From: Mobula hypostoma
Taxonomy: Eukaryota
Length of the DNA stretch: 64,000 bases
NCBI RefSeq assembly: GCF_963921235.1
Contig: NC_086098.1
Coordinates: forward strand, 100,812,001-100,876,000
Direction: 5' to 3'
In this document: positions 2,950-55,950 of the stretch, piece by piece
Position numbering within the stretch: the first letter of the stretch is position 1
How the letters are laid out: each line of letters opens with the position of its first letter
The notes under the pieces: model-generated
What the model was told of the DNA's origin: nothing
The model's database searches: none
Seen by the model: the letters and a program-made list of their open reading frames with translations, nothing else
Made by a program: the position numbers and the translations under genes

Positions 2950-4790
2950 ACTGTCAGCAGGGTTTTGTGTGGCTGAGTTTTTCAAGAAGGTGACAAAGGT
3001 GACTGATGAATGTAGAGCTGTGAATGTTGTCTACATTGATTTTACTCGGGTGTTTGACAAGGTGCAACATGGTAGGCTCGTCTGGAAGATTAAGATGCAT
3101 GGTTTCCATGGTAATTTGGCTATTCGGATTCAGAATTGATTTGCCCATAGGACACAGAATTTAGAGATCAATGGGACTTATTCTGCCTGGAGGTTGATGA
3201 CCAGTGGAATCCATGGAAGTCAGTACTGGGATCTCTGCTGCATATGTTACGCATATATGACTTTGATGAAAACATGGATTACTTTGCACTGAGACAGAGC
3301 TTAGTGATGTTGTGGATAGTGTAGAAAATTGCCAAAGCATACAGCAGAATATAGATCAATGCATTTATGTGCAGAAAAATAGCAGATTGAGTTTAATCTG
3401 CCCAAGTCTGAGCTTTGTAATTTGGGAGATCTAAAGTAAAGTACAGTACATATTTTAATTCCACGTCCTATTCCCATTCCGATATGTCATTCCATGGCCT
3501 CCTCTACTGTCGAGATGAAGCCACACTCAGGTTGGAGGAACAACACCTTATATTCCGTCTGGGTAGCCTCCAACCTGATGGCATGAACATTGATTTCTCT
3601 AACTTCTGTTAATACTCCTCCTTCCCTTCTTACCCCATCCCTAATTTATTATTTTCTTTTCTTTCTCTCTCTCTCTCTCTCTTTCCCTCTCACAATAACT
3701 CCTTGCCTGTTCTCCATCATCCTCTGGTGCTCCCCTCCCCCCTTCTTCCTTCCAAAGCCTTCCGTCGTTTGATACTCCGCCTTCTCCAGCCTTGTATCCC
3801 TTTTGCCAATCAACTTCCCAGCTCTTGACTTCATCCCTCCCCCTCCTGTCTTTTCCTATCATTTCAGATCTCCCCCTCCCTCTCCCACTTTCAAATCTTT
3901 TACTATCTCTTTTTTCCGTTAGTTCTGACGAAGGGTCTCGATCCAAAACGTCGATTGTACTTCTTCCTATAGATGCTGTCTGGCCTGCTGCATTCCACCA
4001 GCATTTTGTGTGTTTTGCTTGAATTTCCAGCATCTGCAGATTTTCTCATCCTTACAGTACACTGGCAGAACCCTTAACAGTATTGATGTATAGAGTATTC
4101 CTGGAGTTCAAGTACGAAACTACCTGAATATGACTACAGAGGTTGATAGGGTGGTAATGAAGGTGTATGGCATGCTTGCTTTTTCTAATTGAGACCCTGA
4201 GTTCAAGAGTGATGAACTTACAGTAAATTGCAACTTTATAAACCTCTGGCTAGCCTGTATCTGGAGAACTGAATTCAGTTCTAGTTCCCCATTATGGGAA
4301 AGATGTTGAGGTTTTGGAAAGGATGCAGAAAGGTTTTACCAGAATACTGCCTGGATTAGAGAGCATGTGCTATAAGGAGAGCTTGGACAAACTTGGGTTG
4401 TTTTATCTGAAGTAGTGAAGGTTGACGAAAAACCTAACAGAGGTTTATACTACATGAGAAGCATGAATAGACAACTGATATCGTTTTTCCCCATAATGAA
4501 ATGTCTAAAACCAGATAGAGATGGCAAATTGAAAGGAGGTGTACAAGACAAGTTGTTCTTTTACACAGAGAGTAGTGGGTGCCAAGAATATGCTGCCTGG
4601 GCTGGTGTTGGAGAAAAATATGATAGAGATGTTTAAAATGACTTCGAATGTGCAGAATATTGAGGGATATAAGCATTATATGAGCAGAATAAATTAGTTC
4701 AGTTAGTCATGTAATTACTTACTTAATTAGCCTGGTGCAATATTGTGGGCTAAGGGATCTGTTCCTCTCCTGTATTGTTCATATTCCATA
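2950..4790 (+). mobile_element. Degenerate CR1 LINE (RT to 3' UTR), interrupted by a PLE at 3451-4052
   Basis: Decayed QQGF..., VYIDF..VFDKV, WIQN, KDVEVLERMQKRFTRILPGLE motifs and CR1 3' tail. Confidence 0.85.
3451..4052 (+). mobile_element. PLE 3' fragment (GIY-YIG C-terminus, pyrimidine-rich UTR, pLTR)
   Basis: FNSTSYSHSDMSFHGLLYCRDEATLRLEEQHLIFRLGSLQPDGMNIDFSNFC*. 9-bp TSD TACAGTACA at 3442-3450 and 4053-4061. Confidence 0.9.
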
Positions 4791-5458: not shown

Positions 5459-5625
5459 TAGGTGAAGAATTAGGCCATTTGGCCCATCAAAATAAATTTC
5501 CTGCATTGCTTTCAGGATACAGAAAAGCTCCTTTCGGCTAGGTTGGCTGGAGCGGGCAAACATATAAGCAAACTCTGCTTTTCCACACATTGCACTCAGT
5601 AAAACTGGTACCTGTTTCTCACTGG

Positions 5626-5847
5626 TGAACGCAGCAGGCCAGGCAGCATCTATAGGAAGAGGTACAGTCGACGTTTTGGGCCGAGACCCTTCTTCAGGAC
5701 TCAATGACTCAATGAGACCTGACGAAGAGTCTCGGCCTGAAACGTCGACTGTACCTCTTCCTATAGATGCTGCCTGGCCTGCTGCGTTCACCAGCATTTT
5801 TTGTGTGTGTTGCTTGAATTTCCAGCATCTGCAGATTTCCTCGTGTT
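5626..5847. mobile_element. Short PLE-terminus element with internal inverted repeat (two hammerhead-like motifs back to back)
   Basis: Arms ~5622-5698 and ~5718-5794 are near-perfect reverse complements. Exact 17-bp TSD TACCTGTTTCTCACTGG at 5609-5625 and 5848-5864. Confidence 0.9.
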
Positions 5848-6183: not shown

Positions 6184-6430
6184 CGTTATATGTTGTAACT
6201 CCAAACCTTGAACTAATTGGAAGAGAAACGCGGAGTGTCCAGAATGCGCGACTTAGTTTCATTTTTACTTTAAGCAGGGCAAGCACATATGACATAGTGG
6301 TGTGATGGTATTTGCCATGCACATACTATTACATATAACCCATAATAAATTACTTAAACAAAGAATGCTTAATCAAACAATGTATTTACAACATTTCTCA
6401 AATATTACTGAAATATTAAATACAATAAAG
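6184..6430 (-). mobile_element. Solo LTR of the Gypsy family at 30636
   Basis: Reverse complement 'tgtatttaatatttcagtaatatttgag...ggagttacaacatataac' aligns by eye with 30636-30882 and 50477-50717. Confidence 0.8.
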
Positions 6431-11615: not shown

Positions 11616-11984
11616 TTGATTGCCTCTGGTTAATCTGTGACTTTCTATAGTAAGGTTTATACTGTTCCATAGAATTGAGTCAAATAACTTACCCAGCACC
11701 AAGTTGAACCAAGGCTCATTTTTAAACAAGGTCCATTTTCGGCAGACTTTCAAACTTTTGGCACCACTTGCAAGGAAGAATGAACAATTGTAATTAGGGC
11801 CTTTAGAATTCACCATCAATTCTTTTAACAACTTAGGAGGCGTTTCATAAAGGCCTGATGATTTATCCATTTTCAAAGATGATAAACTACTTAATACTTA
11901 TATTTACTATGTTTCCTTGTCTGATATTTCATACTTACAGGTTTTAATTATGACATTAGCAATATTTTCCACACTCCACCCTTT

Positions 11985-13750
11985 AGTGAAAAGAATCAGA
12001 GTGGACAGCTATGTGCAGAGCCAAAAGAGATGGGGGGAGATTCTGAACAATTTCTTTTCTTCGGTATTCTCTAAGGAGAAGGATATTGAATTGTGTAAGG
12101 TAAGGGAAACAGGTAGGGAAGTTATGGAAACTATGATGATTAAAGAAGAGGAAGTACTGGCACGTTTAAGGAATATAAAAGTGGATACGTCTCCGGGTCC
12201 TGACAGGATATTCCCTAGGACCTTGAGGGAAGTTAGTGTGGAAATAGCAGGGGCTCTGACAGAAATATTTCAAATGTCATTAGAAATGTGGATGGTGCCG
12301 GAGGATTGGTGTATTGCTCATGTGGTTCCATTGTTTAAAAAGGGTTCTAAGAGTAAACCTAGCAATTATTGGCCTGTGAGTTTGACGTCAGTGGTGGGTA
12401 AATTGATGGAAAGTATTCTTAGAGATGGTATATATATTTATCTAGATAAACAGGGTCTGATTAGGAACAATCAACATGGATTTGTGCGTGGAAGGTCATG
12501 TTTGACAAATCTTATTGAACTTTTTGAAGAGGTTACTAGGAAAGTTGATGAGGATAAAGCGGTGGATGTTGTCTATTTGGACCAGTAACGCCCTTGACAA
12601 GGTTCCACACAGAAGGTTAATTAGGAAGATCCAATCATTAGGTATTAATATTGAAATAGTGAAATGGATTCAGCAGTGGCTGGATGGGAGACGCCTGAGA
12701 CTAGTGGTGGATAACTGTTTGTCAGATTGGAGGCCGGTGACTAGTGGTGTGCCTCAGGGATCTGTACTGGATCCAGTGTTGTTTGTCATATACATTAATG
12801 GTATGGATGATGGGGTTGTAAATTGGATTAGTAAGTATGCAGATGATACTAAGATAGGTAGAGTTGTGGATAATGAAGTAGGTTTTCAAAGCTTGCAGAG
12901 AGCTTTAGGCCAGTTAGAAGAGTGGGCTGAAAGATGGCAGATGGAGTGTAATGCTGATAAATGTGAGGTGCTACATTTTGGTAGGACTAATCAAAATAGG
13001 ACATACATGGTAAATGGTAGGGCATTGAAGAATGCAGTAGGACAGAGGGATCTAGGAATAATGGTGCATAGCTCCCTGAAGGTGGAATCTCATGTGGATA
13101 GGGTGGTGAAGAAAGCTTTTGGTATGCTGGCCTTTATAAATCAGAGGGTTGAGTATAAGAGTTGGGATGTAATATTGAAGTTGTACAAGGCACTGTTAAG
13201 ACCAAATGTGGAGTATTGTGTACAGTTCTGGTCACCAAATTATAAGAAAGATGTCAACAAAATAGAGAGAGTACTGAGAAGATTTACTAGAATGTTGCCT
13301 GGGTTTCATCACCTAAGTTACAGAGAAAAGTTGAACAAGTTGTGTCTTTATTCTTTGGAGCATAGAAGGTTGAGGGGGAACTTGATAGAGGTATTTAAAA
13401 TTATGAGGGGGATAGATAGAGTTGATGTGGATAGGCTTTTTCCATTGAGAGCAGCGGAGATTCAAACAAGAGGACATGAGTTGAGAGTTAAAGGGCAAAT
13501 GTTTAGGGGTAACATGAGGGGGAACTTTACTCAGAGGGTGGTAGCTGTGTGGAACGAGCTTCCAGCAGAAGTAGTTGAGGCAGGTTCAATGTTGTCATTT
13601 AAAGTTAAATTGGATAGATATATGGACAGGAAAGGAATGAAGGATTATGGGCTGAGTGCAGGTCGGTGGGACTAGGTGAGAGTAAGCGTTTGCCATGGAC
13701 TAGAAGGGCCGAGATGGCCTCTTTCCATGCTGTAATTGTTATATGGTTAT
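11985..13750 (+). mobile_element. Young 5'-truncated CR1 LINE; ORF2 RT nearly intact (frameshift near 12583)
   Basis: ORFs 11917-12588 and 12515-13675: SPGPDRIFPR, NYWPVSLTSVVGKLME, QHGFVRGRSCLTNL, GVPQGSVL, KYADD. Tail 'gctgtaattgttatatggttata'. Confidence 0.97.
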
Positions 13751-15833: not shown

Positions 15834-17128
15834 AACACATCAGAATACTTAATACACTGCTGTTATCATCTTTCAAAATATTGAATTAAAAGGGTGTTGC
15901 AATATTAACCAAGGTATCATCCAACTGTCTGGAATGTCTTCCTTTTGGACAATGCCAGAATCTGGAGGTTGAATGCTTTAAAATACTCCATTCAAAACAG
16001 GGCAGAAGATAACAACCTGAAGTAAAATCGAAAGTGCTGCATTTGCTTTGCAGACCATTGAATATTGTCAGTGGTGAATTGGATAGAATTTTGGCTCATA
16101 AGGGAGTTGAGGGCTTTAGAAATCAGCTGGGAAGTGAAAGGCAAAGTTGGATCAATAACAATCTTACAGAATGATGGTGCAGGCGGAAGTCCAGGACTGG
16201 GCCACTCCTCTTTGTTACCTGTGCTCTTTTGTCATAAAGAGGAATTGTCTTACTTACTGAGTTTTTCCAGCATTTTCAGTTTTTCATTGATACTAAGATT
16301 TATTTCTGAAGTGGCTGATGCAGTACCTTCAATCCTGTCCCAGTGGAAAAGAGGGGAGTAAAGAGTTTGATTAACTGATTGGATGACAGCAAGGCCATGG
16401 TTCTAGACTACTGACTGAGACAGAAAACCCCAAATGATAATATCATTTAAATAATAATAAGCAAATGATTTATTATTTTGTTTTCAGTGTGATTGGAATA
16501 GCAACAGAACTCAAGATATAACAACTGACTTATTACGTAGTCATTTATTCCAGGCAGCAGCTCACACATGACCAGGTTCAGTGAACTGAATCTCACAACT
16601 TGCCTTGGAGGGATTAAAATTTAATTTTGATGGAAAAGGAAAATATTCATTGTTTATAATGGATGGTGCACCACAATCAGTCGTTCAATGCCCCTGGTAG
16701 TCTCACAATTTCTGGATTGCTCCTGTAGTAATGTGAATGCTTTAATGCTATGTTACGTAGATTTCACGAGTTGTAGTTTCCTAATGTGACACATTGTGCA
16801 GTTCAGTCAGTGTCTCCATCACTTTCTGGTTTTGCTTCTGAGTTGTTGAGTTTAACTCAATGGACATTCTGTGTCGAGCTGATTAAATCAAGAAGTACAA
16901 ATATTCACATACATCACATTTAAATATTAATAGTTCAACTGAAATCAATGTCTCTATAAAATGTTGGACAGACCTCTGCTGGAATATAATAGTGTGCTCT
17001 CGTCCCAACAGATACCAGAGGGCACAGTTCTAAGGTGTTTGGAAGAAGGTACATGGGCGATGTCAGAGGTAAGTTTTTATGGAGGTGGGTACGATAAGGT
17101 CATTTAAGAGGCTCCTGGATAGTTACAT

Positions 17129-18827
17129 AAACACAAAATACACCTCCATTCCCCATCAAGAAGGCCTCAAAGCCCTCCACTACTTTCTGGATAATAGACC
17201 TCACCAGTTCCCCACCACCACTACCCTCCTCCAGTTGGCGAAACTGGTTCTCACACTCAATAACTTCTCTTTTGGCTCTTCCCACTTTCTTCAGACTAAG
17301 GGTGTAGACATGGGTACTCGCATCGGCCCTAGCTATGCCTGCCTCTTCGTTGGTTATGTGGAACAGTCTGTGCTCCAAACCTATTCTGGTACTGCTCCCC
17401 AATTTTTCCTTCGGTACATTGACGACTACATTGGTGCTGATTCCTGCGCCCATGCTGAGATCGTCAATTTCATCGACTTTACTTCTAACTTCCACCCAGC
17501 CCTCAAATTCACTTGGTCTATCTCTGACACTTCTCTCCCCTGTCTCGATCTCTTGGTCTCCATCTTTGGAGACAGACTGTCCACTGACATCTTCTACAAG
17601 CCCAGTGACTCTCATAACTACCTCAACTGTACCTCTTCCCACCCCGCCACACGCAAAAATGCCATTCCCTATTCCCAGATCCTCCTTCTCCGCCGCATCT
17701 GCTCCAAGGATGAGGTTTTCCGTTCCAGGACATCTCAAATGTCCTCTTTCTTTAAGGATTGTGGTTTCCTTTCTGCTGTCATCAATGATGCCCTCACCCG
17801 CATCTCCTCCATTTCCCGCACTTTGACTCTCACCCCATCCTCCCACTACCACAACAGGGACAGAGTTCCCCTTGTCCTCACCTACCACCCCACTAGCCTC
17901 TGGATCCAGCACATTATCCTCCGCAACTTCCGCCACATTCAACAGGACCCCACTACTAAGCACGTCTTTCCCTCTCCACCCCTCTCCACTTTCCGCGGGG
18001 ATCAGTCGCTCCGCGACTCCCTGATCCACACGACCCTCCCCATGGATCTCCCATCCGGCACTTATCCCTGTAAGCGCAAGTGCTACACCTGTCCCTACAC
18101 CTCCTCTCTTGCCACCATTCAGGGCCCCAAACAGTACTTCCAAGTGAGGCAACACTTCACTTGTGAGTCTGTTGGGGTCATCTATTGCATCCGGTGCTCC
18201 CGGTGCGGCCTCCTCTACATCAGTGAAACCCGACGCAGATTGGGGGACCGCTTCATCGAGCACATCCGTTCCATCCGCCACAACAGACAGGATCTCTCAG
18301 TAGCCACCACTTCAACTCTGCTTTCCACTCCCATTCAGATATGTCCATACATGGCCTCCTCTACTGCCATGATGAGGCTAAACTCAGGTTGGAGGAGCAA
18401 CACCTCATATACCATCTAGGTAGTCTCCAGCCCCTTGGTATGAACATAGAATTCTCCAGCTTCCGGTAACTCCCTCCCGCCCCCTTCTTCTATCCCTATG
18501 TCACTCTGCTCGCTCCCCCAGCTGCCTACCTCCTCCCTCATGGTTCCGCCTCCTTCTACTACCCATTGTGTTTTCCCCTATTCCTTCTTCACCTTTCCTA
18601 CCTATCACCTCCCTGCTTCCCCTTCCCCACCCCTTTATCTTTCCCCTTACTAGTTTTTCACCTGGAACCTACCAGCTTTCTCCTTCCCACCCTCCCCCCA
18701 CCTTCTTTGTAGGGCCTCTGCCCCTTCTGTCTTCAGTCCTGACGAAGGGTTCCAGCCCGAAATGTCGATCGATCTTTTCCACGGATGCTGCCTGACTTGC
18801 TGAATTCCTCCAGCGTGTTGTGAGTGT
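17129..18827 (+). mobile_element. Penelope-like retroelement (Neptune clade): RT, Cys linker, GIY-YIG endonuclease, pLTR; 5'-truncated
   Basis: ORF 17079-18419: YTSIP, QTKGVDMGTRIGPSYACLFV, FLRYIDD, PCKRKCYTC, VIYCIRCSRCGLLYISET. Frameshift near 18305. 13-bp TSD TGGATAGTTACAT at 17116-17128 and 18828-18840. Confidence 0.95.
18733..18772 (+). ncRNA. Minimal type I hammerhead ribozyme motif in the PLE pLTR
   Basis: tcagtc-CTGACGA-a-gggt(tcca)gccc-GAAA-t-GTC-gatcga: CUGANGA and GAAA core, stem II, GUC cleavage triplet, imperfect stem I. Confidence 0.75.
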
Positions 18828-24889: not shown

Positions 24890-27800
24890 AATTTCAATAT
24901 CAGAATTAGGCTTATCGTCAATGACATTTGTTGTGAATTTTGTTGTTTTTGTAGCAGCAGTAGAGTGTAAGAGATAAAAAGTTACTATAAATTACAATAA
25001 AAAAATAGTGCAATAGAGGAATTGTGAGGCGGTGTCCATGGGTTCGTGGGCTATTCAGAAATCGGGTAGCAGAGATACGAAGCTGTTCCTAAAATGCTGA
25101 CTGTCAGTCTTCAGGCTCCTGTTCCTCCTCCCTGATGGTAGTATGAGAAGAGGGCATGTCATGAATAGTGAGGGTCTTTAATGATGTATGCCGTCTTCTT
25201 GAGACACTGCCTCTTGAAGCTACTGTTGATGGTGGGGAGGATTGTGCCAGTGATGGAGCTGGCCGAGCTTACAACCTTCTGCAGCCTCTTTCAGCCTTGT
25301 ACATTGGAGCCTCCATACCAGGTGTTGAAGTATCCAGTCAGAATGCTCTTCATTGTACATCTGCAGACATTTGCTGGAGTCTGTAGCGGAGTCTCAAATC
25401 TCTTCAACTCCAAGCATGGCTTCTTCATGATTGATTCAATATGTTGGGCCTCGGTGGATCATCAGAGATGCTGATGCCCAGGAACTTGAAGCTGCTCACT
25501 ATTTCCATTGCTGATCCCTCAATGGAGACTGGTGTGTTCTCCTGAATTTCCCTTTCTCAAGTTTACAAACAATTTATTGGTCTCGCTGATGTTGAGTACA
25601 GCTGGTCTGCCTCACTTCTTCATAGCTACTCATCACTAACTGAGATTCTGCTAACAACAGTAGTGTCCTTGGTGAATTTGTGATGGTGTTTGAGCTGTGC
25701 TTAGCCACACAGTATTAAGTGTAGAGAAAGTAAGCAGTGGGCAAAGCACCCATCCTTAAAGTGAACCTGTGTTGATTGTAAGTGAGGAGGAGATGTTATT
25801 ATTGATCTACACAGACTGTGGTTTCCTGTTGAGGAAGTCAAGAATCCAGTAGCAGAAAATGGTATTGAGCCTCAGGTTTTGAAGCTTGTTGATTAGTACT
25901 GAGGGGATGATGGTGCTGAATGCTGAACTGTGGTCAATAAACATCAGCCTGATGTAGGTATTGCTATTGTTCAGGTGGTTCAAAACCAAGTAGGGAGACA
26001 GTGAGATTGTGTCAGTTGTAGACCTGCTATGGACATGAACAAATTAAAATTGCAACGGGTCCAGATCTTTGCTCATCCTTAGGCCATCCTCTCAAAGCAC
26101 TTCATCACAACAGATGTAAGTGCTATCAGGTGATAGTCATTGAGAGGGTTCGCCCTGCTCTTCTTGGGCAGCAGTATGATTGATGCCCTTTTGAACCTTC
26201 AACTGCAGCATGACTATGGCTAGAATACTGCCCAACTTCACGCAGTATGCGAGCTGTACAACCAGAGGGGAGAAGACTCTGGATTTGATGTACGCTAATG
26301 TTAAGGATGCATACAGCTCCTCTCCCCTCCCCCCACTGGGAAGGTCAGATCACAACCTGGTGCATCTAAAACCCTGCTACGTGCATCTGGTGAAGAGTAA
26401 ACCTGCAACCTCGAGGACAGTGAGAAAATGGTCGGAGGAGGCTTATGAGGCACTCCAGGGTTGTTTTGAGGTGACAGAATGGCAGGCACTCTGTGAGCCA
26501 CATGGAGAGGATATTGATGGGCTCACAGAATGCATCACTGATTACATTAACTTCTGTGTGGACTGCAATGTTTCGACAAGAACTGAGCTTTGTTATTCAA
26601 ATAACAAGCCATGGGTGACAAAGGACATTAAGGACATCCTGAACACTAAAAAGAGGGCGTTTAAAGATGGAAATAGGGAGGAGCTGAGGGCAATACAAAC
26701 GGACCTAAAAGCCAGGATCAGGGAGGATAAAGACAGGTACAGGAGGAAGCTTGAGTGGAAACTCCAGCAGAACAACATGAGAGAGGTCTGGAGAGGGATG
26801 ACGACCATCACTGGGTTTCGGCAAACTAGCAACAGAGGAGCTGAAGGCAGTGTGGACAGGGCCAATGAACTTAACCTGTTCTTTAACAGATTTGACCTTG
26901 TGACCCCTGCCTATCCCCCACATGAGCCATCTGTTGTCGGCCCCCAACCACATATATTCTACTCTCCCCTCCTACCCCTCCTCACAGTCCCCCACCCTGC
27001 TCTCATGACTATACCGCTCCCCCATACGAAACCACCATGGTGGGCTTCATGGCTGAACAGGTGAGAAGACAGCTGAAACGTCTCAACCTAAGCAAGGCTG
27101 CAGGACCGGATGGTGTCAGAACCAGGGTGCTCAAAGCCTGTGCCCCTCAGCTATGTGGAGTACTTCGCCATGTATTCAACATGAGCCTGAGGCTCCAGAG
27201 GGTTCCTGTACTGTGGAAGACGTCCTGCCTCGTCCCTGTGCCGAAGACGCCATGCCCCAGCGGCCTCAGTGACTACAGACTGGTGGCATTGACCTCCCAC
27301 ATCATGAAGACCCTGGAGAGACTTGTTCTGGAGCTGCTCCGGCCTATGGTCAGGCCACACGTAGATCCCCTCCAGTTCACCTACCAGCCCCGAGTAGGAG
27401 ATGAGGATGCCATCATCTACCTGCTGAACCGTGTCTACGCCCACCTGGACAAGCCAGCGAGCACTGTGAGGGTCATGTTTTTTGACTTCTCCAGTGCGTT
27501 CAACACCATCCGCCCTGCTCTGCTGGGGGAGAAGCTGACGGCGATGCAGGTGGATGCTTCCCTGGTATCATGGATTCTTGATAACCTGACTGGCAGACCA
27601 CAGTACGTGTGCTTGCAACACTGTGTGTCTGACAGAGTGATCAACAGCACTGGGGCTCCACAGGGCACTGTCTTGTCTCCCTTTCTCTTCACCATTTACA
27701 CCTCGGACTTCAACTACTGCACAGAGTCTTGTCATCTTCAGAAGTTTTCTGATGACTCTGCCATAGTTGGATGCATCAGCAAGGGAGACGAGGTTGAGTA

Positions 27801-29080
27801 CAGGGCTACGGTAGGAAACTTTGTCACATGGTGTGAGCAGAATTATCTGCAGCTTAATGTGAAAAAGACTAAGGAGCTGGTGGTAGACCTGAGGTATCTG
27901 TGACCCCTGTTTCCATCCAGGGGGTCAGTGTGGACATGGTGGAGGATTACAAATACCTGGGGATACAAATTGATAATAAACTGGACTGGTCAAAGAACAC
28001 TGAGGCTGTCTACAAGAAGGGTCAGAGCCATCTCTATTTCCTGAGGAGACTGAGGTCCTTTAACATCTGCTGGACGATGCTGAGGATGTTCTACGAGTCT
28101 GTGATGGCCAGTGCTATCATGTTTGCTGTTGTGTGCTGGGGCAGCAGGCTGAGGGTAGCAGACACCAACAGAATCAACAAACTCATTCGTAAGGCCAGTG
28201 ATGTTGTGGGGATGGAACTGGACTCTCTCACGGTTGTGTCTGAAAAGAGGATGCTGTCTAAGTTGCATGCCATCTTGGTCAATATCTCCCATCCACTACA
28301 TAATGTACTGGGTGGACACAGGAGTACATTCAGTCAGAGACTCATTCCTCCAAGATGCAGCACAGAGCGTCATAGGAAGTCATTCCTGCCTGTGGCCATC
28401 AAACTTTACAACTCCTCCCTTGGAGGGTCAGACACCCTGAGCCGATAGGCTGGTCCTGGACTTACTTCATAATTTTCTGGCATAATTTACATATTGCTAT
28501 TTAACTATTTATTACTATTTTCTATTACTATTTATTATTTCTATGACTATTACTATTTACTAATAGTAATATTTCTATTACTATTTATTAATTATAGTGC
28601 AACTGTAACGAAAACCAATTTCTCCCGGGATCAATAAAGTATGACTATGACTATGAGAGCTTGAAGGTATCCTTGAACACTCCAGCCAGTTGATCAGCAC
28701 AGGTTTTCATGCTGCAGAAGATTGATGCCTTGTGAGGGTTCACCCTCTTGAAGGATACACTAATGTTGGCCTCCGAGACACAGATCAAAGGGTCACTAGA
28801 TGCCGTAAGGATTCGCACAGGTATAGTTTTATTCTCCCTTTCAAAACGTGCATAAGAGGTGGTAAGCTCATCAAGAGTGAAGCATCATAATCATTTATAC
28901 TGTTCAGTTTTGACTAATAGGAAATAATGGAATTTAAACCCTCCTACAGCTGTCATGCATATGATTGTGTTTCTAACTTTCCATGGAATTTCCTTTTCTT
29001 CTTTTAATGGCCTTCTATGGGACAGACTTCGTCTTCTTGTACATTTCTGGATCACAGATCCTGAATGTCACAGATCTCAG
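24890..29080 (-). mobile_element. Old Rex1/Babar LINE (pieces ~24890-26208 and ~28655-29080) split by a younger element
   Basis: Minus ORF 25807-25989 HLNNSNTYIRLMFIDHSSAFSTIIPSVLINKL...WILDFLNRKPQSV. Homology continues on both sides of the insertion. Confidence 0.85.
26209..28654 (+). mobile_element. Young Rex1/Babar LINE, 5'-truncated, two frameshifts
   Basis: ORFs 26210-27064 (APE end TRGEKTLDL..LGRSDH), 27037-27903 (KAAGPDG, FFDFSSAFNTI, GAPQGTVLSP, KFSDD) and 27900-28448 (YKYLG). AATAAA then (TATGAC)n tail. Confidence 0.95.
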
Positions 29081-30630: not shown

Positions 30631-30635
30631 GTCAG

Positions 30636-30882
30636 TGTTGTGTATTCAGTATTTCGGTAATATTTGAGGAGTATTGTAAATATATTGTTGGATTAGATAT
30701 TCTTTGTTTTTACACAATGCATGTGGATTATATGTAAAAGTACATGAATGACATTCGTTATTGTGCCACCACATCATATGTGTACACTCCACTTAAAGTA
30801 AAAATAAAACTAAGGGTTGTTCTCCTGGGTTTCCATCTTTTTCCTTTCAATCAGCTTTATGGATTATTTACAAAACGTAACA
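30636..30882 (+). repeat. 5' LTR
   Basis: TGTTGTG...CGTAACA termini, AATAAA inside, homologous to 35715-35953 plus 36251-36261. Confidence 0.9.
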
Positions 30883-31123
30883 GTGGCAATAAGGAAGTTT
30901 TAAACAAAGCTGAGACAACAACCTACCTGTTGAAATGCAGAGAGATGTTCAATTAAAAAAAGTGCAGCAAGAAATGGTTGTATTAAAAAAATATAGCACA
31001 GCACATGCTGTTCAGAAAAAGGAGACAGACACAGTCGGGTTAACAAAATATGGCAAAAATAGGAAGAATTCACTGGTTCATAAACAGTAAATACTGGGTG
31101 ATAATAATTATAAAAAATCAGAA

Positions 31124-32335
31124 ATGGCTGGCTACATCAGAAAGATTGACATGTTTGATTATACAAAAGATGACTAGAATATGTATTGTACATGGATTGA
31201 GTGGTATTGTAAATAAATAGAAAAGACAATTATGTCAATTTTGAAAAGTGTCTTGGATTTAAATGCATACAGTTTGCTTAGAAATTTAATTGCTCTAACC
31301 AAACCAGCTGAAATGTGCTTTGCTGATATCATGTAAGCAAAGCAGGAACACTTAGAACTGAAACCTTTGTTGAATGCAGAATGCTTTAGGTTTCGTAGGT
31401 GGAATCAAAAGGAAAGGCAGACCACTTCAGCATACATAACTGAATTGAAAAGTTTGACTGAGCATTGCCAGTTCTGTAATGCACTTAATTATGCCTTGAG
31501 AGATGATTTAGTTTGTGGAATCTTACAAGAAAGCATTCAAAAGCAGCTCCTAACTGAAACACAACTTACATTTAAAAGAACAGTTGAAATAGCTTTATCA
31601 ATGGAAACAGCAAACAGAGATAATCAAGTTGCAGTCAGGAAGGAAAGTGAACTAGAATAAAATTGCAATTACTAACCAGAAACCAGCCTGGCTGAACAAA
31701 TTGTGCTACTATTGTGGTAGTGTGTCACATTCATCAGACCAACGCAGAATTGAAGATGGAAACTTGCAGAAAATGCAATAAAATAGGACACTTAAAAAGA
31801 GTAGACAAAAATAAATGGACTATGCAAGGAAAGGAAAAAGATAAGTCAAGTTGCATTTTTAAAAACAGCACAAATCTGCATGCTGTTGAAGAAAAATCTG
31901 ATAATGATAAGAGTAATGCAGTACTGAGTATTCTTGAGATACTAAAAATAGACAAGCAACATGGCTTGAACCAGAAGTGAACAACAAATGAATTAAAATG
32001 GAATTGGATGCTGGTTTAGCTGTTTCAGTCATTTTACAAAATGAGTTTAATCAGTATTTCAAAGATACTAAACTAAATCCTGCAGATATCCAATTGAAAA
32101 CTTATACTGAAGAACAGATAACTCCTATAGGAATGATATTCCTAACAGTGAAATACAACAATCAGTAAGCCTCATTGACCTTGTATGAGGTATCATAAAA
32201 ACAGGAGGGCTAGCATTATGGGATCATGATTGGCAGAGACAGCTACAACTTGATTGGAGATCCATCCTCTGCCACACCCTCTGCAAAAGAGTCAGCTGAA
32301 AGCGAATTAAGAAAGGTACTAGATGATGTCACAAC
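31124..32335 (+). pseudogene. Gypsy gag and aspartic protease remnants
   Basis: MAGYIRKIDMFD; ECFRFRRWNQKE...YITELKSLTEHCQF...LRDDLVCGI; CCHC-like CRKCNKIGHL; IKMELDAGLAVSVI (LD[T]G). Multiple stops and frameshifts. Confidence 0.9.
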
Positions 32336-33115
32336 TGTCTCCATACTCTGCACCAGGAACTGTTGCCCAACAGAGCGCAAACAGTTGTTGGAAAGCATAA
32401 TGGAGCAAGGAAGGACCATGCTGCTCAGAGGAATTGCAAAACTGACCAAAGTTGTGGTCTGACTACAACAGTTTTTGTAGACAACATACCTGAGAAAACT
32501 TCTGATATGTTAATCAGACAGTTTCTTGTGAAGTGTGGCTTGCTTTTAAGCTGGAAGAGAGTTCAAAGAGTTTCAGGATAGTTACAAGCATTTGGCTTTT
32601 GTGTATAAAGAACCAGAATCTATACTGTGCATATAAAGGTTCTTGCATGAACTTTAGATGGGAGATATAAAGTTACTTGTGAAAGTAGATAAAAAGTCCA
32701 AAGCTCAGTTGGATGAATGGAAGGCCAAAAAGAAAGGAGTTAATGAAGATATGATAAAAGAGGATTCATCAGATGCTGTTGTGAATAAGCAACCTAAGAG
32801 AACAGGTCAGATCATAAAGGGAGCAAAGAAGGTTTATTGAGAGAATACTCCAGTGAAGTAAATGCACCTTTTCAAGATCAACATACACTTCACAGAAAGA
32901 AGAAAAAGAAAAAGAAAGAAGAAACAGGAAAAGAAAGAGGATGACAAAAGCACTATGAAAATGGACCAGCATAAACAAGACCTAATTTCATGAGAAATTA
33001 GCAAATTCAATGATACTCACAAGAAACTAGAAGAAGAAAATGGAAAGCAAGAAAAAGAAAGACAAGAAGTTAGAAAGGACAGAAGTAGATCCAGAGAAAA
33101 AGGCTGGGAAAAGGA
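32335..33115 (+). pseudogene. RBM25: Intronless RBM25 retrocopy fragment (RRM to start of the Glu/Arg-rich region), disabled
   Basis: VGKHNGARKDH...CGLTTTVFVDNIPEKTSDMLIRQFLVKCGLLLSWKRVQRVSG*LQAFGFC, KEPES, KLLVKVDKKSKAQLDEWKAKKK, REYSSEVNAP, DLIS*EISKFNDTHKKLEEENGKQEKERQE. These match vertebrate RBM25 as recalled (GPTTTVFVGNISEKASDMLIRQLLAKCGLVLSWKRVQGASGKLQAFGFCEYKEPES...). Confidence 0.93.
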
Positions 33116-33199
33116 GAAGAAAGTTGTCCAAAGCTGTCAAAACCGCTACCTGCAGGCTCAGAGTCAACGTCTACAACTATCACAATGGATACTATATAT

Positions 33200-34590
33200 A
33201 TTATGTATCTTTTCTCACCCCTTATGGGCGGTGTGTATGTGTACTCTTCCCTCAATCTAGGATCCTCTACCAGAGATTTGGCAGCTTGAGAGTTCAGTGC
33301 AAAATCCTAGCTGTTCCTACTAGTGTGCTCTTCTGGACTGATATCTCAGATGTTGTTCCCAGGATTTGTTGGAATCACTCTCCCAATCCAAGAGTGATGG
33401 CTCCAAGTGCTCCTATCACCACTGGGCTTACTCTGGATTTAACTTTCTACATCCCTTCTATCTGCTTTTTCAAGCCCTGGTATTTCTCCAGCTTCTCAAA
33501 TTCTTTCTTCCAGATGTTACTGTCATTCGGGATCCTATGTCTGGTTGGTTGGCCAGTACCTGCTTGGAAATTCCACAAGTTCTTAGCTCCATCATTCTCC
33601 ACTACCTTCTCGGGGGAGTATATCCCATTTGGACTTGGAAGTGTCCAATCCATATTCAGCGCAGATTCCTGCAACTTGGTTGTGCTGTTTAGTGAATGTT
33701 GTCCTTGCCTGCATTTTGCATCCGATCACTATGTCCTGAATGGTTTCAGTGGATTCCTTGTACAGTCTGCATCTTGGGTCTTGTCTAATGTGACAGACAA
33801 CCTTTTCTATTGCTCTGTGCTCAGCACCTGTCCTTGTGTAGCCATGAGCAGTGCCTCTGCGCTGTTCCTCAGCCCTACCATTTCCAGCCACTGGTAGGAT
33901 TTTCTTATGTCAGCCACCCTGATATCTGACGATGGTACATCCCGTGCAGTGGCTTGTCCTGCCATGGCCTCTATTCTCTGGCTCTGCTTCACCCACTTCC
34001 ATTTCCATGCCCCCTGCCTGTTGTCTGAGGTATTCCTCTAGTAGGTCATCCTTGGGGGCCATCTTCCTGCCATACTTATGGATATTTCATATTTCTTCCA
34101 GGACTATGGCTTTGACACTTCCAGGTCCCTGTCCTCCTTTATTCCAGCAGGTGTACAGTGACTCAACATTGGACATTGAGTGGAGTCTTCCATATATTGT
34201 TGGTAGTTTATGGGTCTTGATGTCAGTGGCTTCCAGTTCATTCCTTCGCCAGTACACGATTGTGGCTCGGTACTGATGACTGGTAGGGCAAATGTTTTGA
34301 TGGCTCTCAAATTGTTCTTCCTATTCAGCTGGCTTTTTATGACTGCCTTACGCTTTGGAGGTACTTGGATGTTGCATCCTTCTTTGGGTCCTCAACAAGG
34401 CTTCCATGCACTTGCAGGATCCCCAGGTATTTGTAGCTGTCTGGTACATCTAGTGTGTGGCTGTTAGGTAACTCTACTCCATCAACCTTGATGAGTTTAC
34501 CTCCTTTTGTAACCATCTGGCTACACTTTTCCAGTCCAAGTGACATCCCGATGTCTCTGCTGTACACCTTTGTCAGGTGGATTAGTGATT
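33200..34590 (-). mobile_element. R4/Dong (Rex6-like) non-LTR retrotransposon fragment with restriction-like endonuclease
   Basis: DIGMSLGLEKC, SYKYLGILQ, AIKTFALPVI, DPRCRLYKESTETIQDIVIGC..HNQVAGI, KKEFEKLEKYQGLK, C-terminal GTARIL..TLKLPNLW*. Confidence 0.85.
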
Positions 34591-35663
34591 CTTTCTTTTT
34601 AAATCTTTTTATTAGTTTTTCAAAATTATAAACTCAATAACAAAGTTGGTACAAAGAGATTGGAAAAATGTTCATCAGCATATATAAAATGAATTTTAAG
34701 TAGCATAGAAATAAAAGATTTCCAAACTCATAATGAGATTAAACATTAACAAAGAAATAAAAAGAAAAAAATATATATAAACAAAAAAAAGCGCCAAAAG
34801 AAAAAAAGAAAAAAAACCCAAAAAAAGGTAAAACAGGGCTAGACCAACAACTTGTATCAGACACGATCAATAATGTCATTAACTCCGCTCCTCTCATCAT
34901 ATAATTTTAGAAAAAAGATTCGGAAAGGTCAGATTACATCATATGAAAATGTTGCATAAAAGGTTTCCAAGTATCTTCAAATTTAACCGAAGGGTCAAAA
35001 ATATCACTTCTAATTTTTTCTAAATTTAAACTTAATATGGTTTGAGAAAACAATTGGAATGCAGTTGGAGGATTAGTTTCCTTCCAGTTCAACAAAATAG
35101 ATCTTCTCGCCATTAAAATAACAAAAGCTATCATTCAAGAGGCTGAAGAAGACAAAGATTTATGTTCTACCATTGGCAATCCAAAGATTGCCGTAATAGG
35201 ATGGGGTTTTAAATCAAAGCATAGAACTGTTGAAATAATATCAAAAATGTCTTTCCAATATTTTTCCAAAAGAGGACAGGACCAAAACATATGAGCTAAA
35301 GAAGCCACTTCAGAGTGACATCTATCACAAGTAGGGTTTATATGGGAATAAAAACGAGCGAGTTTATCTTTGGACATATGAGCTCTGTGTACTACTTTAA
35401 GTTGTATTAAAGTATGTTTAGCACATATAGAAGAAGTACTAACTAATTGAAAAAAATTTCCCATTTCTCTATAGGTAGGGAAAGTTGAATTTCCCTTTCC
35501 CATTCATTTTTAATTTTATCAGATATATCTGGTGGTAATTTCATAATTATATCATAAATTATTGCTATTAATCCCTTCTGCAAAGGATTAAAACCTAAAA
35601 TTTTATCAAAAATGCCAGAAGGGTTTGAAGTAGGAAAGGTAGGCAACATAGTATTTAAATAAT
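34591..35663 (-). mobile_element. L1-clade LINE 3' fragment
   Basis: IQLKVVHRAHMSK..CDRCHSEVASLAHMFWSCPLLEKYW zinc knuckle, ARRSILLNWK, T-rich UTR with AATAAA and A-rich tail. TSD TTAGTGATT at ~34582 and ~35664. Confidence 0.88.
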
Positions 35664-35714
35664 TTAGTGATTAGTAATTCAATATATGTACTATATACAT
35701 TACGCAGGGAGGAG

Positions 35715-36261
35715 TGCTATGTATTTATTGTTTCAGTTATATTTGGGTAAATTGTAAATATATTGTTTAATTGAGCAATCTTTGTTGTTTACATAATCCA
35801 TTGTGGATAATATGTAAAAGTACATAAATGGCATACGTCATTACATCACCATGTCATGTGGCATGCCTCATTTAAAGTGAAACTGAAACTGAGATCCACT
35901 CTCCTGGGCTCCCATGGTTTTCCTTTAAATTAGCTTTATGTTTTAGTTACAACGGCTGAAATGGCTGTCACAAGAAGGCACAGGTTTAAGGTGCTGGGGA
36001 GCAGGTACAGAGGCAATGTCAGGGGTAGGTTTTTTACGCAGAGAGTGGTGAGTGCGTGGAATGGGTTGCCTGCAACAGCGGCAGAGGTGGATATGATAGG
36101 GTCTTTTAAGAGACTTCTGGATAGGTACATGGAGCTTAGAAAAATAGAGAGCTATGGGTAAGCCTAGTAATTCCTAAGGTAAGGACACGTTCGGCACAAC
36201 CTTGTGGGCCAAAGGGCCTGTATTGTGCTGTAGGTTTTCTATGTTTTTATAAAGCATAACA
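35715..36261 (+). repeat. 3' LTR, interrupted near its end by a CR1 fragment
   Basis: Follows the PPT; '...agttacaa' [CR1] 'aaagcataaca' then TSD. Confidence 0.85.
35954..36250 (+). mobile_element. CR1 3' fragment
   Basis: ORF 35961-36161 TRRHRFKV..GRFFTQRVVSAWNGLP..FKRLLDRYME and 3' tail. Confidence 0.92.
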
Positions 36262-36529
36262 GTCAGGTCTTTCAAGCTAGCTTGTGGCAGGCATGCAGGT
36301 CACAATCACTCTTTGTCTCCTCATTTCTTCCATCCAGTTCCCCTCATCAAACATAGAACATTTCCCTCACCATGAGCAAAGAAAAATGATCTAATATCTT
36401 TGACATGTTGTTAAACATTAAAAAGTTAAAATAGCTCATTGAGACCAACACATTATCACACATAAGGAGCATATTAAGAGCATGTCTTAAATTTTGAACT
36501 GTTTAGTTGTATCCTTTCTCTAGAACATT

Positions 36530-36904: not shown

Positions 36905-37705
36905 ACATTATTTCAGGACTCTTGAACTCAATCCCTAGCTAATGAAGGCCAACACACCATACGCTTTCTTAACCACTCAATCAACTTTCCACAACTTTGA
37001 AGGATCTATGTACTGTACATGAAACCCAGGATCCCTCTGTTACTCCACACTGTTAAGAATCTTCCCATTAGCCTGTATTTTGCTTTCAAGTTCATTCTGC
37101 AGACTTACTAACACATACTTCCATTTTCTCATCCAAGTCATTTGTAAAAATAAATCACAAAGAGCATAGGTTGCAGGGCAGAGCCCTGTGGAACACCACT
37201 GGTTACTATACTCCAAGCAGAATACAGTGTATCTAATATCACACTCAACCTTCTGTGGGTAAGCCAGTTCTGCATCCACATGGCCAAGTTTCCTTGGATT
37301 CCATGCCTCCTGAATTTTTTAATAGGCCTACAATGGGGAACCTTATTAAATACTTTACTAAAACCCATATACACCTCATCTGCTTCTCTATCTTCGTCAA
37401 TTTGATTTGTCTGATCTTTGAAATAATTGATCGGGCTTATAATGCCCTTCACAAAGCTATACAGACTTTCCCTAATCAGACTATGCTTCACCAAATACTC
37501 GTAAGCCTTGTCTCCAAGAATCCTCTGCAGTAATTTGCTCATCACTGGTGTAGGATTCACTGATCTATCATTCCCAGGATTATCCTTAATGCATTTCTTG
37601 AACAAAGCAAAACATTTCCCATCCTCCAATCTTCTGCTACTATCCCTGCACCCACTGAGGACACAAAGATCATCGCCAAAGACACATCAATCTCTTCCCT
37701 CACTT
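36905..37705 (-). mobile_element. Degenerate CR1 RT fragment
   Basis: ORF 37138-37629: DNPGNDRSV, VYMGFSKVFNKVPH, VTSGVPQGSAL. Confidence 0.88.
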
Positions 37706-38365: not shown

Positions 38366-39969
38366 TGCTTTTGTAGCCATGAATTGCAACAAGGATTCAG
38401 AGACCTATACTGCTCTGAATCCTAGATCAGCAATCAAGTTTGACTCCCATTTAGAAATTTCCATTTGATAGACTCTGAGCAGAAAACAGTTCTGCCTTAA
38501 AGAATAGTGAAAATGTATTGATAATCTTCCAATATTCATGAGCCCAGGAGATATTTGACTTGTTCCATCTTTGAAGAGTAACAATCAAAGCTTAAGTCAT
38601 CATTATAATAAACTATTGGGGTATTAGGTTTCTTTTGTTAAAGATACAGAAACAATGGAGTACAAAAAATATTGCTGTGGGGTCAGTCTTCTTGAATCTG
38701 AATCCATCTCCTCTGAAAGTACTACCTGAAATGATTCTTGGAATATGTTTTGTAGAGACTATGAACCATTCCATATTAAAAAGTTATGAAGGAGAACTAA
38801 AAACCTGTACTCATTGTGGTCTATCAAAGTCAAACTAAATTTATTATCAAAATATGTATATGTCTCCATATATCTACTTTTGAGTCTTTGGCGATGATCT
38901 TTGTGTCCTCAGTGGGCGCAGGAATAGTAGCAGAAGATTGGAGGATGGGAAATGTTTTCCTTTGTTCAAGAAATATACTTACGTGCTCTTCTTCCTGCAT
39001 TGTACTGTCTGGTGTGGTGCTCTTGGTAGTTATCATACATTTATATTGGAATGATCTTACTCTGGACTACCGAAAAGACATGTACAAAATCTAACCTGAA
39101 TCCATACAGCAGTATCCAACAAGGATGGCACTGTAATATCTCATTTGGAGTTACATCTTCCAACTGAGATTATACTGCCTTCCCAGTGAGATATCCGTAG
39201 TTTCTCAGGCAATTTCTCAATCAACAAAGCAATTTATCTGATGTTGTTTGTAGAAATTCATGTCTTATTACTATGTTTTCTAAAGAATAGCAATAGCTAC
39301 ATATCAATGTTGTGAATCTTTTACGCAAACTGCATCAACCTCTCCCTTCCTTGGTTTTACGGCTTCCAAAGTTCTCTTTTCTTGCTTGCAACATAGGGCA
39401 TATTAGTCTTTACATTCATTTCCCAATGTTTTTACCAAAGCTCATGATGGACCAATCTTTCTGTTTCACCAGCAAAGACTTTCCTTACTTTCAGATGCTA
39501 ACTTTGCCTTATGACTCAGCCCCTGCCATTCCAGTAAGCCTGACAGTGAAGCATCATAGAATGAAAAGGGAGCATCAGAATTGCTGGAGTCCATTTTACT
39601 ATACCAGGGTGAATATGATTCCAACTTCTTTGTAATCCCTAAAATTTTGATAGTATCTATCATCCAAAAGAAATGCCAGACATCTAAGCTGGAAATACTC
39701 AGCAACTCAGGCAGGATATGTGGAGAGAAAAATAGTTAATGCTCCAGATCCAAAATCCTTCCTCAGAACTCTCTTTATTCCAGATTCCACTATCTGTAAT
39801 TTTCTCTCAATCTCTGTTGTATTTGCTCTCCTCGGTAAATTGCTGTGGAATTATTATGAATTTCATATATTCTGTGTTGGTCAAATTAAATTATTTAACA
39901 GCTTCATTAATGCCGCGGAGAAAAGACATTCAGTTATATATTTGTGCACTGAAATTATCTTTTAAGCCA

Positions 39970-50476: not shown

Positions 50477-50717
50477 TGTAGTGTATTTAATATTTCAGTA
50501 ACATTATAATAATATTGTAAATATATTGTTTGATTAAGTATTCTTTGTTTGTTTACATAATTCATTACGGGTTATATGTAAGAAGTAAGTGAATGGTATA
50601 GGTTATTATGCCATCACATCACATGCGTACATCTTACTCAAAGAAAAAGAAACAGCACACACAGCCTAGATCCTATGTTTTTCTTTTGATTAGTTTCTGG
50701 AGTTACAAAACATAACA
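50477..50717 (+). mobile_element. Solo LTR of the Gypsy family at 30636
   Basis: TGTAGTGTATTT...TTACAAAACATAACA, colinear with both LTRs. Confidence 0.85.
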
Positions 50718-53064: not shown

Positions 53065-55950
53065 AAATTCAAGTGAACCTGAAGGGAACCAATATTCTCG
53101 CGGGCAGATTTGTTAGAGCTGTTGGGGAGGGTGTAAACTAACTTGGCAGGGGAGTGAGAACCGGAGTGAAGGGACTCAGGATAGGACGGATAGTAAAAAA
53201 GCAAAGATAGTGTATAGTCTGACTGTCAGGAAGGGCAGGCAGATGATAAAGCAGAACTGCAGCCAGCAGGGTGAGCGTTAGTGCATTAGGGATGCAGAAT
53301 CAAAACTGGCAGCAAATACAGTAATTAAAGTGTGATATCTCAATGTACAGTGTATAAGAAATAAGGTGGATGATCTTGTTGCTCTATTACAGGTTGTCAA
53401 GTATGATGTTGTGGCCATCACTGCATCATGGCTGAAGGATGATTGTAGTTGGGAGCTGAATGTCCAAGGTTACACGTTGTATCAAAGGATAGGAAGGCAG
53501 GCAGAGGGGGTGGTGTGCCTCTACTGGTAAAGAATGGCATCAAATCAGCAGAAAGATGTGACATAGGAATGGAAGATGATGAATCCTTGTGGGTTGAGTT
53601 AGAAACTGCAAGGGTAAAAGGAGCCTGATGGCAGTCATATACATACCTACTAACATTAGATAGAATGTGGAGCACAGATTACAACAGGAAATAGAAAAAA
53701 GCATGTTAAAAGTGCAATGTTATGAAAGGCTTGGGAGAGTCAACATGCAGGTCGATTGGGAAAATTAAGTTGGTAATGGATCTCAAGAGAGTGAGTTTGT
53801 TGAATATCTCCAAGATGCCTTTTTAAAGCAGTTCGTCGTGGAGGCCTGTACATAACTGCCATCAGGGTCCTTTTACCCTATTAGGGAACCAGCTACAAGA
53901 GAAAATTTGCAGATTCTGGAAATCAGAACAACACACACAAAATGCTGGAGGAACTCAGCAGGCCAGGTGGCATCTATGGAAAAGAGTACAGTCAATGTTT
54001 TGGGCCGAAACCCTTTTTCAGGACTGGATTAGGTGTTATGTAATGAACCAGATGTGATTAGGGAGCTTAAGGTAAAGGAAACCTTAGGAGGCAGTGATCA
54101 CAGTATAATAGAGTTCAATATGAAAATTGGTAGGGAGAAAGTAAAGCCCAGTGTACCAGTAGTTCAGTGGAGTAAAGGAAATTACAGTGGTATGAGAGAG
54201 TTGGCCAAAGTAAATTAGAAGACGATGCTGGAAGGGATGAGAGCAGAGCAGCAATGGCATGAGTTTCTGGGAAAAAAATGAGGAAGGTGCCGGATAGATA
54301 TATTCCACAGACAAAGAAGTACTCAAATGGCAAAATAGTACAGCTGTGGCAGACCAGGGAAGTCAAAGCTAATGTAAAAGCAAAAGGTAGGGCATACAAC
54401 AAAGCCAAAATTAGTGGGAAGACAGAGAATTGGGAAGCTTTTAAAACCCTACAGAGAGCAACCAAAAGAATTGTTCGGAGGGTGTGAGTGCAGTTACTAT
54501 TACAAGGGAGTAGGTGCTCAAAAAGCTGAAAGACCTATGGGTACATAAGTCACTCAATCTAGCTAAACTGCACCCTAGGATTCTGAAGTGGCAGTAGAGA
54601 TTGTGGAGGCAATAGTAATGATCTTTCAGAAATCATTGGACTCTGGCATGGTGCCAGAGGACTGGAAAATTACAAATGTCACTCCACTCTTTAAGAAGGG
54701 AGGAGGGTAGAAAATAGAAAGTTGTAGACCAGTTAGCCTGACCTCAGTGGTTGAGAAGATGTTGGGGTAAATTATTAAGGATGAGATTATGGAGTACTTA
54801 GTGACACAGGACAAGATAGGACAAAGTCAACATGGTTTCCTTAAGAGAAAATCTTGCCTGACAAATCTGTTGGAATTCTTTGAGGAGATTAAAAATTGGA
54901 TAGATAAAGAGGATGCAGTGGATGTTGTATATGTAGACTTTCAGAAGGCCTTTGACAATATGCCACACATAAGGCTGCTTACCAAGTTAAGCGCCCATGG
55001 TATTACAGAAAAGTTACTGGCACGGTTAACGCATTGGCTGATTGATAGGAGGCAGCAAGTGGAAATAAAAGGATCCTTTTTTGGTTGGCTGCCAGTGACT
55101 AGTGGTGTTCTGTTAGGACAAGAGAATGGCAAATGATGTACGATGTTGGCAAATGGCAAATATATGGTCATGCACAATGGTAGCAGAAATAAATGTGCAG
55201 AATATTTTCTAAATGGGAAGAAAATTCAAAAATTTTGGATGCAAAGGGACTTGGGGGTCCCTGTGCAAAGCACCCTAAGGGTTACCTTGCAGGTAGAATT
55301 GGTGGTGAGGAAGGCAAATGCAGTTGAAGAGCACTAGAATTCAAGAGCAGGGATGTGATTCTGAAGCTTTATAATGCTCGGTGAGGCCTAACCTTGAGTA
55401 TTGTGAACAGTTTTGGGCTCCTCATTTAAGAAATGATGTGCTGGCATTGGAGAGGGTTCAGAGGAAGTTCACAAGGATGATTCCAGGAATGAAAGGGTTA
55501 TCAGTGGAGGAAAGTTTGATGACTCTGGGTCTGTACTCGCTGGAATTTAGAAGGATGAGGGGGGATCTCATTGAAATCTTTCAAATGTTTAAAGGCCTAG
55601 ATAGAGTAGATGTGGAAAGGATGTTTCCCATGGTGGGGGAGTCTAGGATAGGAAGGCACAGCCTCAGGATAGAGGGGCGACAATTTAAAACAGAGATGCA
55701 GAGAAATTTCTTTAGCCAGAGGGTGGTGGATTTGTGGAATTTATTGCCACATGCAGCTGTGGAGGCCAGTTCGTTAGGTGTATTTAAGGTAGAGCTTGAT
55801 AGGTCCTTGATTGGACATGGCATCAATGGTTATGGGGAGAAGGCCAGAGAGTGGGGCTGAGGAGGGGAAAATCAGCCATGATTCCATGGCAGAGCACACT
55901 CAATGGACCAAATAGCCTGATACTGCTCCCATATCATTTGGTCTTATGGT
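53065..55950 (+). mobile_element. Long CR1 LINE (ORF1 end, APE endonuclease, RT, 3' UTR) with internal deletions
   Basis: GTNILAGRFVRAVGEG (ORF1 esterase end); YLNVQCIRNKVDDL..YDVVAITASWL; LGGSDH; QHGFLKRKSCLTNLLEFF; ORF 55381-55860. Confidence 0.92.
53895..54025 (-). mobile_element. PLE terminus fragment inserted in CR1, ending at the hammerhead motif
   Basis: Same 'acacacacaaaatgctggaggaactcagcagg...gggccgaaaccctttttcagg' sequence as the other PLE termini. Confidence 0.85.

Follow-up and report, generated by a model that had tools for sequence, protein, structure and literature searches.

Positions 30636–36261 on the plus strand of a 64,000-nt stretch of the Mobula hypostoma genome (assembly GCF_963921235.1, contig NC_086098.1, positions 100,812,001 to 100,876,000, forward strand; hereafter the window, from whose first letter all coordinates are counted) are occupied by a Ty3/Gypsy long terminal repeat (LTR) element which has two related TG...CA LTRs and an exact 5-bp target-site duplication (TSD), and which carries an intronless piece of the host gene RBM25 where its pol core is expected. 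The locus is an old Gypsy:RBM25 chimera, dead in its element part as well as in its RBM25 part. It probably arose by LTR-mediated retroposition, in which reverse transcriptase (RT) switched template onto a co-packaged, spliced RBM25 mRNA. The parts of the element, in 5′ to 3′ order and with later insertions set aside, are the following.

30631–30635, plus strand: left TSD, GTCAG, an exact match to 36262–36266.
30636–30882, plus strand: 5′ LTR, TG...CA, 247 bp; aligning it with the window's three other copies sets its ends.
30884–30895, plus strand: motif resembling a primer-binding site (PBS), 1 nt past the 5′ LTR; in a second family member (at 6184, minus strand) the LTR is likewise followed by such a motif.
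31124–31950, plus strand: decayed gag with a CCHC zinc knuckle (P0032 aa 1–169, 53% identity; the zf-CCHC match, at E 0.006, does not reach the curated cut-off).
31951–32339, plus strand: decayed aspartic protease and linker, stopping just before RT (best match E 1e-19, 61%; alignment ends at P0032 aa 416).
32340–32380, plus strand: 5′ junction zone, 41 nt, matching neither Gypsy nor RBM25.
32381–33023, plus strand: intronless RBM25 fragment, including the RNA-recognition motif (RRM), matching deer RBM25 (P0007) aa 59–289 without 18–19 aa from aa 244.
33024–33110, plus strand: probable continuation of RBM25, K/E/R-rich, in a frame unbroken from the verified part.
33111–33189, plus strand: presumed C-terminal tail of Gypsy pol, P/S/T/E-rich; comparison with relatives is non-significant.
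35706–35714, plus strand: polypurine tract (PPT), immediately before the TG of the 3′ LTR.
35715–35952, plus strand: main part of the 3′ LTR, 76% identical to the 5′ LTR.
36253–36261, plus strand: final 9 bp of the 3′ LTR, 7/9 matching the end of the 5′ LTR and 8/9 that of a solo LTR.
36262–36266, plus strand: right TSD, GTCAG, an exact match to 30631–30635.

The TSD lies immediately outside both ends of the element, as a preliminary description of the locus had claimed, and with GTCAG at 53 of the 63,996 5-mer positions in the window the chance of an exact TSD is ∼0.0008. Moreover, the LTR ends are fixed independently of the TSD, because two further LTRs of the family, a solo copy and a minus-strand copy, are found within the window:

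50477–50717, plus strand: solo LTR of the same family, 70–73% identical to the element's LTRs, with 5-bp flanks that agree at 3/5 positions.
6430–5498, minus strand: second, truncated family copy with LTR (6430–6184), PBS and start of gag.

The truncated copy carries in its gag a ∼250-bp insert with a near-perfect 86-nt inverted repeat (5622–5794). In the element itself, the PBS-like site after the 5′ LTR and the PPT before the 3′ LTR are both correctly positioned. The repeat to the left of the element stops at ∼30628, short of the TSD, and gives no empty-site comparison.

Gag and protease are recognizable and the remainder of pol is not. A search with the protease frame returned 872 proteins at E ≤0.001 out of 1.84 billion representatives searched, with P0032, a Metynnis gene model, as the best. 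In a frameshift-aware alignment to this protein, identity is 50% over 403 codons (31124–32339), which contain 6 stops and 5 frameshifts; in a gag homologue search, 0 of 248 candidates scored. The preliminary description had ended the Gypsy part at ESELRKVLDD (∼32330), and the sequence indeed stops before RT, but homology runs ∼4 codons further, to 32339. RT, RNaseH and integrase are present in four of the five long protease-search matches that were scanned. In the element none of the three was detected by tblastn of the RT-to-integrase parts of six relatives (best E 0.08), whereas all four gag or protease queries used as controls gave matches (best E 4e-40 to 1e-13), which bears out the earlier claim that these domains are lacking between the LTRs. 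Hence the RT, RNaseH and integrase that make a Gypsy element autonomous are missing here, over a span of ∼2460 nt as measured in the full-length relative P0157. The pol core is absent and not split, for nothing from RT to integrase lies downstream of the insert.

The RBM25 insert is colinear with deer P0007 and on the same strand as the element. It shares 129 of 215 residues with the deer protein and contains 4 stops and 3 frameshifts, and a functional RBM25 retrogene was rejected on account of these lesions. The frame at 32375–32602 alone found 31 proteins among 35 candidates, and those that bear names are mammalian and Trichinella records of RBM25 or RRM; PDB gave no useful RBM25 match, and no second RBM25 copy exists within the window. 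About 780 bp of intronless RBM25 coding sequence in the orientation of the element had been described, of which 643 nt were verified by comparison and the rest is a probable continuation. We take 33024–33110 to be the continuation of RBM25 up to the 3′ junction; the RE/RD-repeat region, which is long in mammalian RBM25, is presumably much shortened there. Slippage of RT in purine-rich repeats could account for this, or it could be a trait of a paralogue. In keeping with the preliminary description, the RBM25 block has neither a flanking duplication, at any of the five settings tried, nor a poly(A) at its 3′ end, where no A-run exceeds 5 nt.

That the insert was copied from mRNA is indicated indirectly by mammalian gene models. 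Two such models break at RBM25 aa 181/182, 243/244 and 289/290; the yak model lacks exactly aa 182–243, and both depart from RBM25 after ∼aa 289. We read these breaks as likely exon boundaries, on the assumption that intron positions are conserved across vertebrates. The insert passes aa 181 without an intron, its single large gap (18–19 aa), of the size of an exon, begins at 243/244, and its frame continues past 289, so that two putative exon boundaries are crossed without an intron and a third is reached. A single genomic exon as the source of the fragment, an outcome that had been named as fatal to the chimera reading, was rejected because these boundaries are crossed, and the insert looks spliced. 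The gap starts at the putative boundary 243/244 and is thus consistent with exon skipping; at this site (window 32924–32940) either an exon-skipped isoform may have been captured or the host gene may have no such exon.

The age of the insert agrees with that of the element. Dating by LTR–LTR divergence, as the preliminary description had proposed, gave 76% identity and a Kimura two-parameter (K2P) distance of 0.30 (confidence interval 0.22–0.39), and half of this distance is 0.15. The RRM core (aa 84–178) has 71 of 95 residues identical to deer and 3 stops; simulated neutral decay gave 74% identity at 0.15 substitutions/site, and the observed core falls within the 95% range for 0.10–0.20, so that core decay matches half the LTR distance. 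Lesion density is also alike: the 403 gag-protease codons hold 6 stops and 5 frameshifts, the 215 RBM25 codons 4 and 3. The similar decay of insert, gag-protease and LTRs fits arrival as one unit.

Later insertions account for 2799 of the 5626 bp of the element, as two nested minus-strand long interspersed nuclear elements (LINEs; ∼2.5 kb) and one 300-bp CR1-like piece.

33190–33203 and 35689–35702: 14-bp TSD of the outer LINE, 13/14 positions matching (6/2000 resamples).
33204–35688, minus strand: outer LINE, a 5′-truncated non-LTR retrotransposon split by an L1-like piece (weak zf-RVT, E 0.039).
34580–34591 and 35669–35680: 12-bp TSD of the inner LINE, 11/12 positions matching (16/2000 resamples).
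34592–35668, minus strand: inner L1/Tx1-like 3′ fragment (zf-RVT E 1e-7).
35953–36252, plus strand: CR1-like 3′ fragment, 300 bp, which splits the 3′ LTR and for which blastn gave 9 further matches within the window.

The windows in which the two LINE TSDs were sought were set after the repeats had been spotted, so their chance figures are optimistic. We assume the outer LINE to be R4/Rex6-like; its nearest clusters, at 0.95–0.97, are unnamed, and an RT-domain cluster stands at 0.92. The piece at 35953–36252 we likewise take to be CR1-like, and several of its 9 matches lie at the ends of long LINE open reading frames. Without these insertions the element is 2827 bp long and the distance from RBM25 to the PPT is ∼100 bp. 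We take this ∼100-bp stretch to resemble a Gypsy pol tail. The order of Gypsy 3′ stretch, PPT and LTR after RBM25 given in the preliminary description therefore holds only once the insertions are removed, because ∼2.5 kb of LINEs intervene, and the tail itself is unmatched.

On the reading that we prefer, a spliced RBM25 mRNA would have been co-packaged into a Gypsy particle, and RT, during minus-strand synthesis, would have departed from the element RNA close to where pol ends, copied ∼0.7–0.8 kb of the RBM25 mRNA and switched back to the element RNA just upstream of the RT region, presumably with microsimilarity at the junctions. In this way ∼2.5 kb of RT-RNaseH-integrase would be replaced, and the enzymes of an intact element, acting in trans, would insert the chimera as a single unit, giving a 5-bp TSD. 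The chimera would then have decayed neutrally and gained the three LINE fragments. The core of what had been proposed earlier, an LTR:RBM25 chimera integrated as a unit, holds on the exact TSD, the missing pol, the spliced-looking insert and a decay that matches the LTR age.

Several observations weigh against capture by template switching, and they are set here beside the alternatives. The 41-nt 5′ junction zone matches neither source at the protein level (9/9 frame/reference comparisons non-significant against shuffles), and the 3′ tail scored no better than shuffled sequence when compared with the tails of five relatives (56–867 of 1000 shuffles did as well, in 5/5 comparisons). The age match assumes that the RRM core of the parent equals the mammalian core, and the insert is more divergent outside this core, so the parent may be a paralogue. 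Finally, an element that has received three later LINE insertions is a plausible target for a fourth. This last point leads to the main rival, in which a LINE-made RBM25 retrocopy inserted just before the RT of an integrated Gypsy element and one later deletion took out RT-RNaseH-integrase along with the retrocopy's 3′ part, poly(A) and TSD. Such a deletion predicts the missing hallmarks equally well, and vertebrate retrocopy numbers track non-LTR elements, according to the main text of bioRxiv 10.64898/2026.06.26.734816. It requires two events, however, including a several-kb deletion that spared the PPT, and it must place the insert on the sense strand of the element; moreover, insert decay equals half the LTR distance, whereas the TSDs of the known LINE insertions differ at only 1/14 and 1/12 positions, and we consider this history unlikely. 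Capture by read-through, as in retroviral oncogene transduction, would start from an element transcribed in or near RBM25, with a cryptic donor before RT spliced to an RBM25 exon; template switching would have made the 3′ junction alone. The resulting layout would be identical, and a 5′ junction ambiguous over 41 nt would accommodate it, but no positive evidence points to it, and the microsimilarity reported for 25 of 29 fly junctions in PMC5131818 favours switching at both ends; we therefore hold it to be very unlikely.

If the two LTRs came from two insertions that ectopic recombination or a deletion brought together, the chimera never integrated as a unit, and there are data on this side: the LTRs of the element resemble each other little more than they resemble the other copies (76% identity, near the 68–73% of the remaining five LTR pairs), and the raw quartet sites, 11 versus 9, favour a pairing of the 5′ LTR with the solo copy. 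Possible CpG decay affects 7 of the 11 conflicting sites versus 2 of the 9 supporting ones, and after masking of possible CpG sites the quartet supports the element's own pair by 7 to 4 to 1 (bootstrap 1489/2000), although the mask was picked only after the conflict had been seen. The quartet alone is thus weak evidence for a single insertion, and the argument is carried by the exact TSD; an origin in two insertions, which the preliminary description had listed as a way in which it could be wrong, is highly improbable. A further reading makes this locus one old copy among many of an amplified non-autonomous Gypsy family with an RBM25 RRM, perhaps at first a gag-protease-RRM fusion whose RNA-binding domain aided packaging. 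As the sequence stands, the gag-protease and RBM25 frames are offset by one base, with the 41 ambiguous junction nt between them. The preliminary description had suggested such a family, spreading an RRM fragment; with one copy in 64 kb, bearing 4 stops and 3 frameshifts, the suggestion finds no support, and we regard an amplified family as quite unlikely.

Elsewhere in the window, other mobile sequences were observed. An open frame of 448 aa at 17073–18419 (plus strand), with fragments at 1350–2330 and 3450–4050, is presumably a Penelope-type RT with a GIY-YIG end; its short terminal repeat is present in many copies across the window and looks like a minimal hammerhead, but has no match in Rfam, which gave none in the window at gathering scores. 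Long LINE frame remnants at 11851–13750, 26195–28448 and 54771–55860 we take to be CR1-like and Rex1/Babar-like. A 94-nt inverted repeat (37593–37686 and 38881–38974; 96% complementary, spacing 1194 nt) is probably a young non-autonomous DNA transposon. No host exon was recognized among the 64 frames of at least 95 aa in the window.

The relatives of the element, K02A2.6-like fish elements, are in our assumption members of the Mag lineage. Table 1 of PMC3286476 gives a 5-bp TSD in 20 of its 21 Mag rows, with which the TSD of the present element agrees; as the element has no RT, no RT tree can place it in a clade. It has gag-CCHC-protease homology in common with K02A2.6-like fish Ty3/Gypsy elements such as P0032 (Metynnis) and P0182 (Conger), whereas the long relatives have the RT, RNaseH and integrase that it lacks. 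P0032 is likewise without most of RT-RNaseH-integrase, and Atlas holds a 73-member chordate cluster with the zinc knuckle only; pol-less derivatives of this Gypsy group may exist in fishes, or these may be gene-model artefacts. A vector already pol-less was not relied on, since P0032, a predicted model, retains the beginning of RT as well as parts of integrase.

For cartilaginous fishes, 14,081 retrocopies have been counted and their numbers linked to non-LTR elements (bioRxiv 10.64898/2026.06.26.734816); the main text of that study does not mention RBM25, and its supplements may list the locus. In the literature on RBM25 retrocopies, RBM25 pseudogenes, elasmobranchs and LTR capture in sharks we found no report of this locus, with most subscription papers outside the coverage. 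Compared with L1-mediated processed pseudogenes, the insert is likewise an intronless copy of a housekeeping mRNA, but it is 3′-truncated and has no poly(A) and no TSD. The closest known cases are the LTR-mediated retrocopies described in fly, mosquito, zebrafish and chicken, as well as in mouse and human, by Tan et al. (2016; PMC5131818), where part of the open reading frame is replaced by an mRNA truncated at both ends, without poly(A) or TSD. Measured against the features used there, the present element is discontinuous across the insert (∼2.5 kb of pol is missing, where a gap >20 bp is asked), has the same LTR family on both sides, with an internal 3′ tail that is only presumed to be Gypsy, and lacks the L1 hallmarks of poly(A) and TSD; exon junctions are spanned without introns, as judged from the mammalian gene models. 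Thus it shares with the cases of Tan et al. a partial mRNA that replaces part of the internal frame between LTRs and lacks both poly(A) and an inner TSD, whereas those cases are young, with measurable microsimilarity, and this locus is old (K2P 0.30), dead and overlaid by LINEs. Among the retrocopies with readable features, that survey describes this structure for 5 of 7 in zebrafish and 4 of 10 in chicken; two fly chimeras were found at more than one site, and no cartilaginous fish was among the six species.

The locus reveals no new mechanism or working gene and fits a known route of host-gene copying; its importance would grow only if many copies with identical junctions existed. What it adds is an old vertebrate case of Gypsy-driven mRNA capture in which both LTRs and the TSD are still readable, and which preserves an apparently exon-skipped RBM25 transcript. 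Because the host is a cartilaginous fish, some retrocopies in this group would be LTR-derived, in contrast to the survey that links vertebrate retrocopy numbers to LINEs. HERV-K:FAM8A1, maize Bs1 and the yeast Ty-mRNA chimeras, as summarized in PMC5131818, likewise hold pieces of host mRNA inside LTR elements; they belong to different element clades and hosts, and Bs1 carries pieces of three genes, whereas the Mobula element joins a Gypsy gag-protease to a piece of RBM25.

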